A stretch of 64,000 nt of DNA, taken from a virus. Below the pieces are notes generated by a model. The model worked only from the letters and a program-made list of their open reading frames with translations. It had not been told where the DNA came from and made no database searches. The translations under genes were made by a program, and so were the position numbers. The stretch spans positions 33,941-97,940 of the IMG/VR virus record IMGVR_UViG_3300032286_001304; one strand, 5' to 3'. This document shows positions 17,034 to 46,542 of the stretch, in pieces. Each line of letters starts with the position of its first letter. Position 1 is the stretch's first letter.

Positions 17034-17076
17034 GTTATTATCCCTTTACTATAGGGCATTTTGAAATAAGGTCAAG

Positions 17077-17104
17077 AAAAAAGCCACGCTTTTTGGCGCG
17101 GCTT
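17077..17104 (-). terminator. Rho-independent terminator
   Basis: Minus strand AAGCCGCGC-CAAAAA-GCGTGGCTT followed by T run; a TTGACC..TATAGT promoter for dnaB follows immediately. Confidence 0.7.
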
Positions 17105-17126
17105 GAGTATTGAGTTATATTTTTAG

Positions 17127-17300
17127 TTAAAATAATATAGCTCCAGCGATAAAGGTAGCGGCAACTACAATTAAAAAATTTAAAAGTGATATGTTTACTT
17201 TTTTTGTAAAAATATATGTTTTAAATCCACTTGATTGAATATTTGCAACTTCAATTTGCGCTTTATCTACTACTTCATTTACTTTTTCTATGTTTGACAT
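17127..17300 (-). CDS. Small membrane protein (57 aa)
   Basis: Hand translation MSNIEKVNEVVDKAQ...LLNFLIVVAATFIAGAILF; C-terminal hydrophobic helix; below ORF-track cutoff. Confidence 0.6.
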   Translation of the reverse strand: MSNIEKVNEVVDKAQIEVANIQSSGFKTYIFTKKVNISLLNFLIVVAATFIAGAILF

Positions 17301-17308
17301 AATTATTT

Positions 17309-27695: not shown

Positions 27696-28961
27696 TTAAT
27701 TTTTAAATTCTTTCTTTTTTAATGTCCACCCATTATACTCTTTTATCTGGTCCCTTATCAAGAGAAAAAGTTTTTTCTTCGGAATTAGCCCAATCATAAA
27801 TTTCCATAGCTCGCTGGGGCTTTCGGCAGAAATCTCTTCGTTAGTATTTATATTTAAAAGAGATATATAACTATATTGTTTTCTTGGATGACTTTTTAAA
27901 ACGCTTATTAAATCAAATCTTTTATGATTTTTTAGTCGCCCATTAACGATTCTTCTAATTGATGGATCGCCCATCTCAAGTATAAATTGAGATAAATTTG
28001 TTATAGTTATTTCTATTTTATTTTTCTTGTCATATAAAACATATACTCCACATGGTTTTGTTTTATTCTTTAAACAAACAATATCCTCGTCCGTGATACT
28101 CGCGAGTCTCCACCCTTTTCGCTCTACAGCCTTACCCCGTATCAAAAAAGTTACATCTTCGCGCAATAATGGAGGATGAAGGCGAGCAAACTCCGTTGAA
28201 CTTCCTCCATATTTGTAAATTTTGCCATCTGGTCCCTTTAGCTCCATATCTTTTAGCTCTTGGCGCTTAAACCATTTTGAAATATCCATACCTTCTTTGA
28301 TATAATCACCACATGGAGTATTTGTCTTAAATCCATTAATCATTGCAGATAAATAATCTGGATTTAATTTTTTTTCTAAGGCGAATTCAGATATGTTTTT
28401 AAAATAAATAACTTCTTTTGTTTTATAATTAATTAATTTATATTCTTTGTTTGGATTTTTAATTAATTCTAACGGAGTTCCCTTTAGCGCGAAACCCTGA
28501 GATGAAATATTTTGTTTAGAAATAACAACTTTTAGACTTGGGTAAGACAACCCTCTTTCTTTGCAAAAATCTTTTAGATGGAAAATAATATATTCTTTTC
28601 CTTTGTAATCAACAAGATGATGCTCTTGGGATACTGACTCGGATAATTTTCTTTTTGAAATCTCCGAAAACTCAGGAGAATCTCCACCAGTTGTAAAATT
28701 ATAGCCATTGGGAACAAAAGTGTTATGTTTTGCTATATGAAATTTTTCTAATCTTTTCAGTTCTTCTTTTGATTGTACATTTGACTCAAGCAGTTCAACT
28801 TTAAAGTTTTTAGGACCGTATAAATTAACGGCATTTGACAGATATTGATTATGATGCTTTCTATACCAATTTCCATGATACCTTTCTCTTATATTTTTCT
28901 TTATACTCAAACCGATATAAGAATGTCCATTTATTTTGTTGGTAATTTTATAGATAATCAT
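27696..28961 (-). CDS. GIY-YIG homing endonuclease with repeated NUMOD-like C-terminal units
   Basis: MIIYKITNKINGHSYIG, PNGYN.T.GG; repeated F.....L.......GW units; start placed at ATG 28961. Confidence 0.8.
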   Translation of the reverse strand: MIIYKITNKINGHSYIGLSIKKNIRERYHGNWYRKHHNQYLSNAVNLYGPKNFKVELLESNVQSKEELKRLEKFHIAKHNTFVPNGYNFTTGGDSPEFSEISKRKLSESVSQEHHLVDYKGKEYIIFHLKDFCKERGLSYPSLKVVISKQNISSQGFALKGTPLELIKNPNKEYKLINYKTKEVIYFKNISEFALEKKLNPDYLSAMINGFKTNTPCGDYIKEGMDISKWFKRQELKDMELKGPDGKIYKYGGSSTEFARLHPPLLREDVTFLIRGKAVERKGWRLASITDEDIVCLKNKTKPCGVYVLYDKKNKIEITITNLSQFILEMGDPSIRRIVNGRLKNHKRFDLISVLKSHPRKQYSYISLLNINTNEEISAESPSELWKFMIGLIPKKKLFLLIRDQIKEYNGWTLKKKEFKN

Positions 28962-29035
28962 TGTTCGCCCTTTATCAAAATTACACCTGAGACGAACACT
29001 TTTATACACAAAAAGAATCCATATATACACTTAAA

Positions 29036-33498: not shown

Positions 33499-33587
33499 AT
33501 GGATAAATACACAGAATTATATCAATAATAATAGTTTTTTTTAAAAAAATAAACTATTGATTACTAATTATTAGTAAGAAATTTAAT

Positions 33588-33794
33588 CTAATTTACATTA
33601 GATGCTTTATTTTCTGTATAACTATCGCCAACTGCTTCAAAAATCAAATTTTTAATAAAATCTCCTATCTTGTTATTATTAGGCATTTTATCATTTGTTA
33701 CATTTATGTAATAACGAATAAATTCATTATCTATATTAAATGTGTAGTTAGCTGTTCCATCTTCAAATTCTTTTACTTTTCTTAGTTGTATCAT
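33588..33794 (-). CDS. Hypothetical protein
   Basis: 68 aa ORF. Confidence 0.5.
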   Translation of the reverse strand: MIQLRKVKEFEDGTANYTFNIDNEFIRYYINVTNDKMPNNNKIGDFIKNLIFEAVGDSYTENKASNVN

Positions 33795-33829
33795 AGTGTA
33801 TTATTACATATAAAAATAAACACTATTAG

Positions 33830-38358: not shown

Positions 38359-39597
38359 TTACAATTTTGATAATTCTAAGGCTAATTGTTTAGCTATTTC
38401 CGCTTTAATTCCAGTATGTAATCCAATATAGATTGAATTATAATGTAAGTAATCAGCATTTGGGTAATCTTTAGGATTTCCATATTCTTTAAATGCAGTA
38501 TGACGGAGAAGATTTGAACCTACAAGTCCACGATAACCAACTCCAGCAGCATTTAAATATCCTTTAACTTTTTGAATAAGTTCCTTGTCTGGATATTTTG
38601 GATCACGAATAATTGGTAGAGAAAGAAGCATATGACCACTTTCACTATTAATATGTTGATTTAAATATTTATATACTTTTTTACAGACTTTTGAATCATA
38701 TGAATTAAGGTTAGAATAAAATACTTTACTGATAGAGCGACGATTTTCTTCTGACCATTTTAGAGAACGATCAAAATCTAATGAATGCATGTATGCAATC
38801 AAATTAGTGCTTCGGTAATTAGAACCGACTAAATTAAAATCAAAACTTGGATCTACATCTGGGTTCTTATATTCTTCCGGCATCCCGCGAGTCATGCCAT
38901 GATTACGCGCCATTCTATACCAATTAGCTTCTTCTAAGGTTTGACAGAAAATTAATCCACCTTCCTGCATACCACTTGTAAAATGGCTTGCATAAACAGA
39001 AGTTGATGAAGTTGTAATATTACAAAAATGTCTATTGTAACTATCAAAAGGATGGGTTTTATTAAAAGCTTCCCATGAAAAAGACGATTCACAATTATCT
39101 AATAAAAGTTTTACACCACGTTTTTGACATTCTTTTGCTAGGGTTTCTAAATTGCAAGATTGACCTAGAAGAGTAGTATAAAAAACGGTATCAATATCCT
39201 TATCTTTATCAAGTTTTTCTAAGATTTGTTTTACCGATGGATTCAAATTTACTAAATCTACATCAACAAATACAGGCTTAAAAGAAAAATTAATCCAAAC
39301 ACTGACACTTGAAATCCAATTAACTACATTAAATAAAACTTTATTTTTACCACAATTCCATAAACCTTGTTTTTTAAGTTCTTCTTTTCTATGCAAAGCA
39401 ATTAGTTCATTTGCTTCACTTCCAGATCCAACCATAACAACATATGGAGATCCAGTATATTTAGACCATTTATTTTCATATTTCTCTATCTCAGGGCCAA
39501 GAGTCCATTTATCATTAGTTAAAATAAATTTACTGATTTTGAGTTTATCAAGCACTGTCATGCTTGAATATCCAAGTTGCCAATTATATTTTTTCAT
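38359..39597 (-). CDS. DegT/DnrJ-family PLP enzyme, ColD/E1-type 3-dehydratase
   Basis: SGSEAN, PVFVD, DNCES, YASHF...EGG (His at the usual Lys site), RNHG, G.NYR; start placed at ATG 39597. Confidence 0.75.
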   Translation of the reverse strand: MKKYNWQLGYSSMTVLDKLKISKFILTNDKWTLGPEIEKYENKWSKYTGSPYVVMVGSGSEANELIALHRKEELKKQGLWNCGKNKVLFNVVNWISSVSVWINFSFKPVFVDVDLVNLNPSVKQILEKLDKDKDIDTVFYTTLLGQSCNLETLAKECQKRGVKLLLDNCESSFSWEAFNKTHPFDSYNRHFCNITTSSTSVYASHFTSGMQEGGLIFCQTLEEANWYRMARNHGMTRGMPEEYKNPDVDPSFDFNLVGSNYRSTNLIAYMHSLDFDRSLKWSEENRRSISKVFYSNLNSYDSKVCKKVYKYLNQHINSESGHMLLSLPIIRDPKYPDKELIQKVKGYLNAAGVGYRGLVGSNLLRHTAFKEYGNPKDYPNADYLHYNSIYIGLHTGIKAEIAKQLALELSKL

Positions 39598-39952
39598 TAT
39601 ATCCAAATTTTTTTTCGCTATATTCATTTTTTGGGAAGAATTTATCTTGAAGAGCTTTTTTTAATTGAAATCTTTTATAGTTAAGATTATCTACAATAGA
39701 TGCTGGTAAATTAGAGTTTACCTTTATTTCATCTACTAAGTCAAATATTTTTTCATTACAATCAAGAAGTTCTTTGTATTCAGTAGAGTCAATTATACTT
39801 GATAAAATATTCTCGTTTATTTGATTTGAAATTTCAGATTTTATTTGTAAAAAATTATTAAATGCAGTTACGTTTTTCGTTTTATTATATTTGACTTCAG
39901 ATATCGAAAGAAGATCGAAACAAAAAGCTTCATCTAGTTGTAATTTAATCAT
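39584..39952 (-). CDS. Hypothetical protein (phage family found with glycan genes)
   Basis: DEA..FD.LSI.EVK ... N..RF..K. Confidence 0.55.
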   Translation of the reverse strand: MIKLQLDEAFCFDLLSISEVKYNKTKNVTAFNNFLQIKSEISNQINENILSSIIDSTEYKELLDCNEKIFDLVDEIKVNSNLPASIVDNLNYKRFQLKKALQDKFFPKNEYSEKKFGYNEKI

Positions 39953-39955
39953 ATT

Positions 39956-40747
39956 TTAATTATCTAAAGCATTTAATTCTAAACCTATTTTATCTTCTTC
40001 GTTTAGAAGAGAGCCTATGTGATAGGATCTTGCTTTGTTTGGATAAAAGCAAGATAAACTTTCTTGAGGATTACTAAAATATTTAACTGCGCGTCCAAAG
40101 TCATGTTCAACATGTGGGCCAAAAGAGTTTTGATTTTTAATAATTAATAATGTTGCATTTCGTAAATCGCGGGTTCTAAAAATAGATGGATTTAGAGAAA
40201 AATCAGAATGAACAAAAAAATCATCATCATGATGGCGGGAATATGTATCTATTCCATGTCTTTCCTTTAAATTATTAATTCTTTTAAATTCATCATTAAA
40301 TCTTGGAAATCTAACTTGTAGTATATTTGGATTTTTTTCAAGTAAATTTATTGCTTTATTAATCCATTTAAGCAAATCACCATCTTCAGCACGAATAAGC
40401 CAGTCGTCCTCTAGATGTAAAACATACTGACTCTCAAGAACTTTTGGATTATTATACATTCTAAAGATATCGGATAAATAACCTACTTGATGAGATACAT
40501 CAAAATGCTTCCAATCTTGAACTTCTAAATGGTTATTAAATCCATATAGAGATTTGAGTTCTTCAGCTATTTCATTTCCGAAAGATATTTCTTCATTATT
40601 TGTTACTTTTATATTGCTAAAAAGCGCAGAAAAGTTACCTAATGGAATTTGAGAGTTTAAATCATTTACAGTTTCTCGCCATCTTGTATTTATTCCCCAG
40701 TGTCCTTTTGTAGTTGCAAATAAAGCTATTGCTAATGGTATTTTCAT
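39956..40747 (-). CDS. GT-A fold glycosyltransferase
   Basis: YVLHLEDDW, FSLNPS, HIG. Confidence 0.7.
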   Translation of the reverse strand: MKIPLAIALFATTKGHWGINTRWRETVNDLNSQIPLGNFSALFSNIKVTNNEEISFGNEIAEELKSLYGFNNHLEVQDWKHFDVSHQVGYLSDIFRMYNNPKVLESQYVLHLEDDWLIRAEDGDLLKWINKAINLLEKNPNILQVRFPRFNDEFKRINNLKERHGIDTYSRHHDDDFFVHSDFSLNPSIFRTRDLRNATLLIIKNQNSFGPHVEHDFGRAVKYFSNPQESLSCFYPNKARSYHIGSLLNEEDKIGLELNALDN

Positions 40748-44370: not shown

Positions 44371-44397
44371 TTAAAATATTTTGCTATTTAATTTATT

Positions 44398-44577
44398 CTA
44401 ATTATTTATTAATTTATATTCTTCTAATAATTTTAGGATTTTACTCTTACTTAATTCATCTAGATCATCAATTAAAACATGATTCACAATATCCTTCCAT
44501 TTTACCCAAACAACTCCTTTATTTTTAGATAAACCATAAAATTCTAATTTAGTTCCATTTGAGGTCGTAAGTTCCAT
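44398..44577 (-). CDS. Hypothetical protein (59 aa)
   Basis: Hand translation MELTTSNGTKLEFYGL...; first gene after the divergent promoter. Confidence 0.45.
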   Translation of the reverse strand: MELTTSNGTKLEFYGLSKNKGVVWVKWKDIVNHVLIDDLDELSKSKILKLLEEYKLINN

Positions 44578-44591
44578 TAGTAATAAAACAC

Positions 44592-44656
44592 ATAATTACT
44601 AGTTTTCATAAAAAAGTCAAATTTTTATTGACAAATTTATTAAAATAAAGAATACT
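44592..44656. promoter_or_regulatory. Back-to-back sigma70-type promoters at the strand switch
   Basis: Minus: TTGACT(44620-44615)-N17-AATTAT; plus: TTGACA(44628-44633)-N17-AATACT. Confidence 0.6.
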
Positions 44657-44661
44657 TAGAT

Positions 44662-44859
44662 ATGAAAGTTGAATTCGTATCAGTAGATGAAAAAGAAAAA
44701 CATTATTCTTTAAGGACTTCTGATGGTCATGTCTATTTTGGACTAGATTATCTTAATTGCTGTTTTTTAAAGAGAGTTGGCAATAGATTTGATTTGTATT
44801 TAGATTTGTCTAGAGCAAAAGTTAAGATAGAAAAAAGAAGTCTTAGTAAGAAATTTTGA
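44662..44859 (+). CDS. Hypothetical protein
   Basis: 65 aa ORF directly after promoter. Confidence 0.5.
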   Translation: MKVEFVSVDEKEKHYSLRTSDGHVYFGLDYLNCCFLKRVGNRFDLYLDLSRAKVKIEKRSLSKKF

Positions 44860-44884
44860 CTTTTTCTTTTTATATCGGTATAAT
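44856..44884 (+). promoter_or_regulatory. Near-consensus sigma70 promoter in front of the non-coding region
   Basis: TTGACT-N17-TATAAT; a second TTGACT-N18-TATAAG begins at 44927. Confidence 0.75.
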
Positions 44885-44954
44885 TCAGTGTATCAATTTT
44901 ATCTGTTTTTGCTTAATTTATTTTCCTTGACTCAATCAGCAGAAACTTCCTATA

Positions 44955-45600
44955 AGTAATTATTCCACTATCCATATTCGCTAAAAATTTCTCATAACTA
45001 AAATCTAGTGGAATACTTTAAATTTAGCGCAGAACATTACAAAAAAAATTGGGTCCAATCCCCTATCCCCCGACAATGGTTAAAACTGTAAAGTCGGGGG
45101 TTATTTGCATACACTTGGTAATGATCAAAATCTATTAAGTCCAAGGGTCTTTAGCGGAGACTCAATGGTATGCAATCTTGAAAATTCGTTACGATTCGCG
45201 TCGTCTAAAAAACAGATCAGAGTAAAATCTGATGGGATAGCCCGCCGTGCATTTTGTAATTTTTATGAAATGGCTTGGAGTTGGGTTAAGTTGCCTTTGG
45301 CAGTTTAATCGGTTTTTTCGCACACGTTTCCTTCTGGCTAGAACCCAGAAACCAACTCTGTATTAGATTACATTACGCGATAAGTCTTGCTTCTCCCTAA
45401 GCTATCCAACTCTAATGGTGACATTAGATAGGTGAATAAAAAAACGGGCCTCAAGAAGTTTTGTCTTACAAATTAGCCTCTTATTAATACAGGGGCTAAT
45501 TGTTGTCATTTATTGCCTAAGAAGTTATCATCTTACATTAAAAACGTATTAAAGCGCGAAAGCGCAGCGAATGAATTTCCATAGGAAAATCATGAGCTTA
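44955..45600 (+). ncRNA. Candidate large structured non-coding RNA, class not recognised
   Basis: No credible ORF; raised GC; at least 10 nested or long-range helices, two GNRA tetraloops and G-U pairs favouring the plus strand; upstream promoter. Confidence 0.55.
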
Positions 45601-45632
45601 TCGAACATGTTCTTGTATCTATTAAAAATAAC

Positions 45633-45661
45633 TTGACATTTTCTAGAAATAAACGAATACT
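45633..45661 (+). promoter_or_regulatory. Sigma70-type promoter for the sigma-factor operon
   Basis: TTGACA-N17-AATACT. Confidence 0.6.
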
Positions 45662-45677
45662 CAATAAAGATTAAGTT

Positions 45678-45944
45678 ATGCTAACTCCATTTTTACTAAG
45701 CCTCTCTATATATTTTTTCTTCTGGTTAATTAACTATGGTGGACTATTAGGAGATTTTATTCAGTCTAAGATACTGCCAAAACTTCCTGAAAAAGTTCAA
45801 TACGCCATGAAATGTGTTTTTTGTTTCATGTTTTGGGTTTCTATTTTTATAGTTCCATTTAGTTCTCTAGCTTGGTGGATAATTTTTGTGACACCAGTTT
45901 ATGGTTTATTCATAAATTTAACATATCTATCCTTAAATAAATAA
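45678..45944 (+). CDS. Small membrane protein with CxxC (DUF1360-like)
   Basis: Hydrophobic segments and CVFCFMFW. Confidence 0.55.
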   Translation: MLTPFLLSLSIYFFFWLINYGGLLGDFIQSKILPKLPEKVQYAMKCVFCFMFWVSIFIVPFSSLAWWIIFVTPVYGLFINLTYLSLNK

Positions 45945-45963
45945 AAAATTAAAAATTATTGTT

Positions 45964-46542
45964 ATGTTGCCACAACAAGTTCAAGAAGCATCTGACTCGG
46001 AATTAGCAAAATTAGTAAAAGATAATCAATCTAACGAAGCAATATCTGAAATAATCAATCGGCATACTGGCATTTATTTATCAGTTGTTAATTCTTTTAA
46101 AATACCATCTTTGCAAAAGAGTGAACTTTTAGATTCAAAAAATACAAATATATATAAATATACATTAAAATTTGATGATACTAAAAATTGCAAGTTATCA
46201 TCTTATCTTTATCAAAGCACATATTTTGATTGCTTAAAAATTTTAGATAGAACTGCAAAAACAGAGGAGATAGATGAAAATCAGTTTTCTGAGTCATTTC
46301 AATTCAATGATGATGAATCTGTTAAAAATATTTCGTTGCAAATAGCCAGAAACGTAGGAGGAAGAGATTTCGAGAAGATAATTGAAGCAAGACATTTTGG
46401 AGATTCTATTGGAAAACTTTCTTGGCATTTAATTCCTGCTAAAATAGGTAAATCTCATGAATGGGCAAGAAATATTTATAATACATACATTGAAAAATAT
46501 AAAGTAGAAATAAAAAACAAATTTAATTATATAAAATTTTAA
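45964..46542 (+). CDS. Phage sigma70-family sigma factor
   Basis: SDSEL..., A...II.RH, KFD..K.CKLSSY (region 2), II.ARH......SW..I...IG.S.E..R (region 4 HTH). Confidence 0.75.
   Translation: MLPQQVQEASDSELAKLVKDNQSNEAISEIINRHTGIYLSVVNSFKIPSLQKSELLDSKNTNIYKYTLKFDDTKNCKLSSYLYQSTYFDCLKILDRTAKTEEIDENQFSESFQFNDDESVKNISLQIARNVGGRDFEKIIEARHFGDSIGKLSWHLIPAKIGKSHEWARNIYNTYIEKYKVEIKNKFNYIKF

Follow-up and report, generated by a model that had tools for sequence, protein, structure and literature searches.

The ORF-poor gap at positions 44860-45677 of the window (the whole 64,000-nt stretch of DNA that was analysed) is best explained as a stand-alone non-coding RNA (ncRNA) gene on the plus strand. The predicted RNA spans about 620 nt, of which about 430 nt form a closed core, and host polymerase would read it from a promoter at 44856; judged from the sequence, the probability of this reading is about 50%. 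The candidate RNA matches no catalogued family. An earlier note on this DNA had proposed a new class of ncRNA of the size of ROOL or GOLLD. The part of the proposal that stood is a structured, uncatalogued ncRNA of roughly the right size; the class goes further than the data allow, as the RNA has one relative about 93% identical to it. Because only two near-identical members are at hand, we regard the candidate as a credible orphan ncRNA gene, and a "new class" is not established. Possibly it represents a new family among the large structured RNAs of phages that have no known function, a loosely defined kind.

The window comprises bases 33941-97940 of a 97,940-nt virus record in IMG/VR; CheckV rated this record 63% complete. 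The phage is uncultured and AT-rich (window G+C 30.4%), and no cultured phage is close to it, DnaE matching cultured phages at only 25-30% identity. The gap is 818 nt long, contains no conserved ORF and is located at a divergent strand switch within a glycosyltransferase gene cluster. Genes to the left of the switch are on the minus strand. Genes 3' of the gap encode, in order, an 88-aa membrane protein, a 192-aa sigma-like protein and further glycosyltransferases. The genes and promoters around the gap are listed below.

44662-44859: 65-aa ORF, right of the switch and just before the gap.
44856-44884, plus strand: near-consensus sigma-70-type promoter TTGACT-N17-TATAAT (11 of 12 positions), predicted start near 44891, no ORF behind it.
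44927-44956, plus strand: second promoter-like element TTGACT-N18-TATAAG, inside a 48-nt block identical in the relative.
45633-45661, plus strand: operon promoter TTGACA-N17-AATACT, serving the 88-aa membrane protein, the sigma factor and glycosyltransferases; its type is shared with the promoter at 44628.
45964-46542, plus strand: predicted phage sigma-70-family factor, 192 aa, second gene downstream of the gap, identified by fold.

The 192-aa protein had no Pfam match and a weak match to phrog_351. Its AlphaFold2 model (pLDDT 81.6) showed a two-domain fold, and the top Foldseek matches in the PDB were all sigma factors, with a best E-value of 1e-3. From this modelled structure we identify the protein as a sigma-70-family factor. 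The 88-aa membrane-protein and sigma genes are only 19 nt apart in the window; in the close relative L002 an additional 242-aa gene (L002 3269-3997) separates them.

The promoter that the earlier note had placed ahead of the gap was present as described. Only three sites with at most one mismatch to TTGACA-N17-TATAAT were found in the 64-kb window (44856 plus, 22132 minus and 49969 plus). The other two are located directly before genes in the correct orientation, which suggests that near-consensus sites are genuine promoters in this phage. The promoter at 44856-44884 was kept in L002 except for one spacer base, and it has the 10-mer TTGACTTTTT in common with the leftward promoter at 44620-44592. 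The element at 44927-44956 falls in the perfectly conserved block 44926-44973 and may be either an alternative start near 44963 or a portion of the RNA. Two promoter types were observed in the divergent region. The first, with TTGACTTTTT and an A/T-rich -10 element, precedes the leftward operon and the RNA; the second, TTGACA-N17-AATACT with GAATACT in common, precedes the 65-aa gene and the 88-aa/sigma operon. The two types suggest two temporal or regulatory classes.

Coding potential of the gap was low. No ORF of at least 70 aa was found in 44371-45677, and the sole ORF of at least 50 aa in 44860-45677 was a 67-aa TTG frame (45105-45308). That frame and those at 45402-45509 and 45037-45144 were frameshifted in L002, and a stop was present in 45189-45323, so that four of the five small ORFs of the gap were broken in the relative. 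The substitutions in the gap showed no codon phase, whereas 13 of the 23 in the flanking 65-aa ORF were at third codon positions. That the gap encodes one or more small proteins is therefore very improbable. The only frame to suggest it was the fifth, a 39-aa GTG frame at 45247-45366 that is intact in both phages; all four of its differing positions were non-synonymous, and it had no evident ribosome-binding site.

The composition of the region is distinct. The core (45036-45468) has a G+C content of 39.5%, compared with 30.4% for the window and 26-30% for the flanking genes, and long intergenic regions of raised G+C in AT-rich genomes are what the GC-IGR method uses to find structured RNAs (PMC6429828). 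The folding z-score of the core was -3.42 on the plus strand and -2.03 on the minus strand, and separate dinucleotide shuffles gave -3.1 and -2.7; coding control windows (n = 22, both strands) ranged from -2.1 to +1.3. The comparison with shuffles suggested by the earlier note thus gave -3.1 to -3.4 for the plus strand of the core. Folding energy alone is not distinctive for the core, because two other intergenic regions folded comparably well. These are on the minus strand at 33499-33829 (20% G+C; z = -2.7 alone and -5.1 in the surrounding 433 nt) and at 17034-17308 (28% G+C; z = -2.6 alone and -3.5 in the surrounding 433 nt), and in both there are strong terminator hairpins and perhaps small ORFs.

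The predicted fold consists of the following elements, given as RNA.

44962-45014, plus strand: 5' hairpin with a 9-bp stem AUUCCACUA/UAGUGGAAU and a 35-nt loop, present in the predicted folds and also as an inverted repeat.
45039-45066, plus strand: 5' strands of the long-range helices that close the core (GGUCC/GGGCC and CCUAU/AUAGG), pairing with 45428-45464.
45067-45100, plus strand: G+C-rich hairpin CCCCCGAC/GUCGGGGG with an inner 5-bp stem; one U-G pair is C-G in L002.
45105-45175, plus strand: three-way domain with closing stem UUGCAUAC/GUAUGCAA and two inner hairpins, in the MFE and alifold structures.
45216-45233, plus strand: hairpin AUCAGA/UCUGAU; two pairs become G-U and U-G wobbles in L002, which works on the plus strand only.
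45235-45407, plus strand: largest domain, closing stem GGAUAGC/GCUAUCC, holding a hairpin at 45244-45274 and a three-way junction.
45277-45359, plus strand: three-way junction GGAGUUGG/CCAACUCU, holding hairpins at 45285-45309 and UUCUGG/CCAGAA.
45284-45318, plus strand: terminator-like 12-bp hairpin followed by GG and U6, within the three-way junction.
45411-45428, plus strand: GNRA hairpin, loop GUGA in the window and GCAA in L002.
45428-45464, plus strand: 3' strands of the core-closing helices, in the MFE, centroid and alifold structures.
45471-45515, plus strand: 11-bp hairpin AAUUAGCCUCU/AGGGGCUAAUU with a U-rich tail, in the predicted folds.
45554-45598, plus strand: GCGC-GNRA-GCGC hairpin (GAAA in the window, GUAA in L002) and a neighbouring hairpin, in a less conserved spacer.

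The helices listed in the earlier note were all recovered in both the MFE fold and the two-sequence RNAalifold consensus (44961/45006, 45067/45093, 45105/45168, 45216/45228, 45235/45401, 45278/45352, 45332/45345, 45411-45428, 45471/45491 and 45554-45565). The core-closing helices were recovered in the window's MFE and centroid folds, in the folds of L002 and in the alifold consensus, and their 5' strands (45039-45066) were free of substitutions in L002. Within the closed core are the G+C-rich hairpin, the three-way domain, two small hairpins, the domain 45235-45407 and the GNRA hairpin. When the window and L002 were folded separately, the same closing helices and the same domain layout were obtained. 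The 11-bp hairpin and its tail lie directly 3' of the closed core and form the probable 3' end of the full-length RNA. This hairpin is a weak terminator that fell short of the U-run rule of the terminator scan, and its tail is richer in U in L002. The hairpins at 45554-45598 may or may not be part of the RNA.

The structural comparison was made with two sequences, the window and L002, which are about 93% identical over the RNA region. The core was 94.0% identical to L002, above the genome mean (89.1% in 700-nt windows), the flanking genes (84-91%) and other intergenic regions (77-92%), and a 51-nt block of the largest domain (45324-45374) was identical. The highest conservation in the shared region was at 39597-40300 (95-99% identity), which may reflect recent exchange. 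No pair was altered on both sides in L002, because the sole relative is so similar. RNAalifold counted 14 substitutions in pairs, all one-sided and all 14 wobble-compatible; this count was rejected as evidence, as column-shuffled alignments gave the same.

We used a substitution test in which the fold was fixed from one sequence and the 57 substitutions of L002 were re-placed randomly on bases of the same kind. With the window fold on the plus strand, 9 pair-breaking changes were observed versus 19.6 expected (P = 0.0002), and 14 kept the pair versus 10.1. On the minus strand the numbers were 22 broken versus 20.6 expected (P = 0.74) and 4 kept versus 12.5. For plus-strand pairs with a probability of at least 0.8, 2 were broken versus 9.3 expected (P = 0.0006) and 7 kept versus 4.9. 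With the fold of L002 on the plus strand, the test gave the same direction and was not significant (17 broken versus 20.2 expected, P = 0.17; 16 kept versus 13.1). The test with the window fold supports the earlier statement that GNRA loops and G-U pairs function on the plus strand alone. The asymmetry between strands is the pattern that G-U-compatible transitions in a plus-strand RNA would produce, and regional differences in substitution rate cannot account for it.

Individual elements showed the same kind of change. The hairpin at 45253-45269 has three adjacent pairs that were each altered on one side and are all still paired, and the hairpins at 45216-45233 and 45285-45309 only gained wobbles in L002. 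Both GNRA loops were altered, and all three substitutions keep GNRA. All four single-base indels between the two sequences were at unpaired positions. The covariance model of the largest domain (R1, 45233-45410) contained 53 pairs, of which seven had one-sided wobble-compatible changes and none was broken.

Homologs of the RNA were found only in the close relative. Neither 44856-45640 (blastn, distant mode) nor the sigma-like protein (tblastn) matched any of 50,697 phage records. In IMG/VR the sigma-like protein retrieved one close relative, L002, and an alignment of 15 sigma members added one 52%-identical relative (L009/G003); DnaE alone retrieved nothing there, and a DnaE alignment brought in nine relatives that were 25-38% identical. 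Scanning metagenomes yielded only a relative already found (L010 and L008 share 99.98% identity), and the genome-collection scan returned nothing. Five DNA patterns from conserved RNA blocks matched only L002/L005 and some further sequences, which were rejected as chance matches by the covariance models R1 and R2 (45060-45178) and by direct reading. R1, R2 and nhmmer found no RNA homolog in G003 or in the nine DnaE relatives, all but two of these records being fragments. G003, a 46-kb record that is 22% complete, has the same sigma gene without a comparable gap, and no paralog of the RNA was found elsewhere in the virus record. The protein database contained closer relatives: 14 sigma homologs at 47-71% identity on uncultured-phage contigs, several of them 60-177 kb long, and six DnaE homologs at 72-96%, mostly on contigs of 9-26 kb and one on a contig of 177 kb.

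The small number of sequences bears on the possibility that the gap has no specific function, being a spacer or the remnant of a decayed or acquired gene whose structure results from raised G+C and a short time of divergence. The absence of homologs in the more distant phages searched, the absence of pairs altered on both sides in two close sequences and the good folding of other intergenic regions would all fit a gap of this kind. However, the region is more conserved than the flanking genes and most other intergenic regions, a near-consensus promoter points at it, pair-breaking substitutions are depleted on one strand only, and the GNRA loops are maintained. Chance or decay is unlikely in view of the conservation and the strand asymmetry.

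It is also rather improbable that the region acts at the DNA level, as a replication origin or a cluster of protein sites and promoters at the divergent switch in which the hairpins are incidental. The strand switch coincides with the minimum of the cumulative GC skew, four promoter-like sites are located within 1.1 kb, and a loose TATYCCAYYA-like motif recurs, as might be expected of such a control region. No iterons, tandem repeats or DnaA-box cluster were found in it, however, TATCC was not enriched relative to other windows, and the region is G+C-enriched and not A+T-rich. The strand-specific preservation of G-U-compatible pairs fits RNA and not duplex DNA sites.

The main rival to a stand-alone ncRNA is a cis-acting leader or attenuator of the operon that starts at 45678, in which the hairpin at 45284-45318 and alternative CCAACUC partners would set read-through and time the switch to the phage sigma factor. 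We consider this somewhat unlikely. The candidate resembles structured leaders and attenuators in its terminator-like hairpin with a U run, its alternative pairings and the operon downstream on the same strand; the orientation is right, the terminator scan found no strong terminator before 45678, and the second gene downstream encodes the sigma factor. The terminator-like hairpin is conserved, with two changes in L002 that are both wobble-compatible, and it could yield a short form of about 430 nt or serve as an attenuator. Two CCAACUC segments (45352 and 45406) are available as partners for GGAGUUGG, and the second has an A to G change in L002 with which pairing is possible as U-G.

Several features differ from what such a leader would need. 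A separate promoter at 45633, which shares its type with that at 44628, serves the operon, and the candidate matches no known aptamer. The conserved fold extends past the terminator: the most conserved block (45324-45374), which pairs into the core, and the closing helices are located 3' of the terminator-like hairpin, where an expression platform does not need them and where they are not expected of an attenuator. Identity to L002 falls from 94% to 85.5% past 45515 (45516-45632), between the fold and the operon. A leader here would be at least 700 nt long, which far exceeds typical bacterial leaders. The change of G45277 to A in L002 strengthens the local helix and weakens a possible pairing between GGAGUUGG and the beginning of the 88-aa ORF, and that pairing was rejected for this reason. 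A 7-nt complementarity between 44976 and 45566 was rejected as within chance expectation.

Known RNA families were searched with cmscan against Rfam 15, as the earlier note had advised. There was no match at the gathering score in the whole window and none at E <= 10 in 44400-46000, where known aptamer families were likewise unmatched at that threshold. ARAGORN found no tRNA or tmRNA in the window, and no Rfam model of RNase P RNA, SRP RNA, 6S RNA or group I and II introns matched, in agreement with the lack of tRNA, tmRNA, RNase P, SRP and intron hallmarks reported before. An AAGUCC at 45138 that resembles P4 of RNase P was rejected; its U, a base that is invariant in RNase P RNA, is C in L002. 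A 444-aa GIY-YIG/HNH-type homing endonuclease gene is present inside the replication-gene block of the window (27696-29030, minus strand), and no intron was found with it by the Rfam scan.

The nearest comparisons for the stand-alone RNA are ROOL and GOLLD. The candidate is similar in size to ROOL (RF03087; mean 581 nt, PMC5737381), and both have multi-stem junctions, are phage-borne, have no explanatory protein gene nearby and are of unknown function. However, the candidate did not match the RF03087 model even at E <= 10. ROOL is usually located near tRNA genes or in prophages and is found in at least three phyla (PMC5737381), whereas the candidate is not beside tRNAs, the tRNA cluster of the phage being about 73 kb off (G000:C1:3625-4728), and is found in two near-identical phages. 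ROOL is defined by conserved junctions and pseudoknots; the comparison of the candidate is limited to two sequences. GOLLD (RF01998) is about 800 nt long, and the candidate is smaller, is not beside tRNAs and gave no RF01998 match. They are alike as large ornate RNAs, GOLLD being often phage-borne (PMC5737381, PMC12286853); its name records its lake origin (PMC12286853). Recent work showed that ROOL and GOLLD assemble into multimers made of RNA alone; what they do is still unknown (PMC12286853). The phage described here may likewise come from a lake, going by its sample identifier.

From these elements we infer transcription of the region, the ends of the RNA and its function. As a stand-alone ncRNA gene, the region would be read by host sigma-70 RNA polymerase from the promoter at 44856-44884; transcripts would begin near 44891 and possibly also near 44963. 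The transcript would fold into the core of about 430 nt (45039-45464), closed by long-range pairing of its 5' and 3' strands around five hairpins or multi-helix domains. Termination would occur mainly at the 11-bp hairpin with its U-rich tail (45471-45515), giving the RNA of about 620 nt, and termination at the embedded hairpin with U6 (45284-45318) may yield a shorter form. Our best guess at function, by analogy, is a stand-alone RNA of early infection that would act in trans. Its shape would matter, either as a scaffold that binds proteins or as a particle made of RNA alone, as has been proposed for ROOL and GOLLD, and it would not act by antisense pairing. A further step, which we propose only tentatively, is that it represents the first member of a large-RNA class new to phages, expressed early from a host-type promoter beside the sigma-factor operon, and is either a ROOL/GOLLD-like particle or a gate that times the change from host to phage sigma factor. 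Large, intricately folded RNAs of bacteria and phages are rare, and a further unrelated one in an AT-rich uncultured phage would add to the case for phages as their reservoir. The position of the RNA at the head of a sigma-factor operon suggests a link to the timing of phage transcription.

The gap had been described as the only long ORF-poor stretch. This holds for the window and not for the whole record, which contains a second one of 2.4 kb outside the window (G000:C1:3652-6101, equal to L052 1153-3602). This stretch carries four minus-strand tRNAs (Arg-tct, Leu-caa, Met-cat and Gly-tcc), and segments of about 600 nt (z = -4.43) and about 860 nt (z = -1.75) in it had no Rfam match. A T-arm-like GGTTCGATTCC was present that ARAGORN did not call. 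A U-rich spacer motif, AUUUUUGUU(C/A)UUU, recurs after hairpins and tRNA-like ends; it was rejected as a general terminator of the phage, being confined to the tRNA cluster. The stretch could hold further tRNA-like or novel RNAs, and a tRNA context is typical of ROOL and GOLLD.
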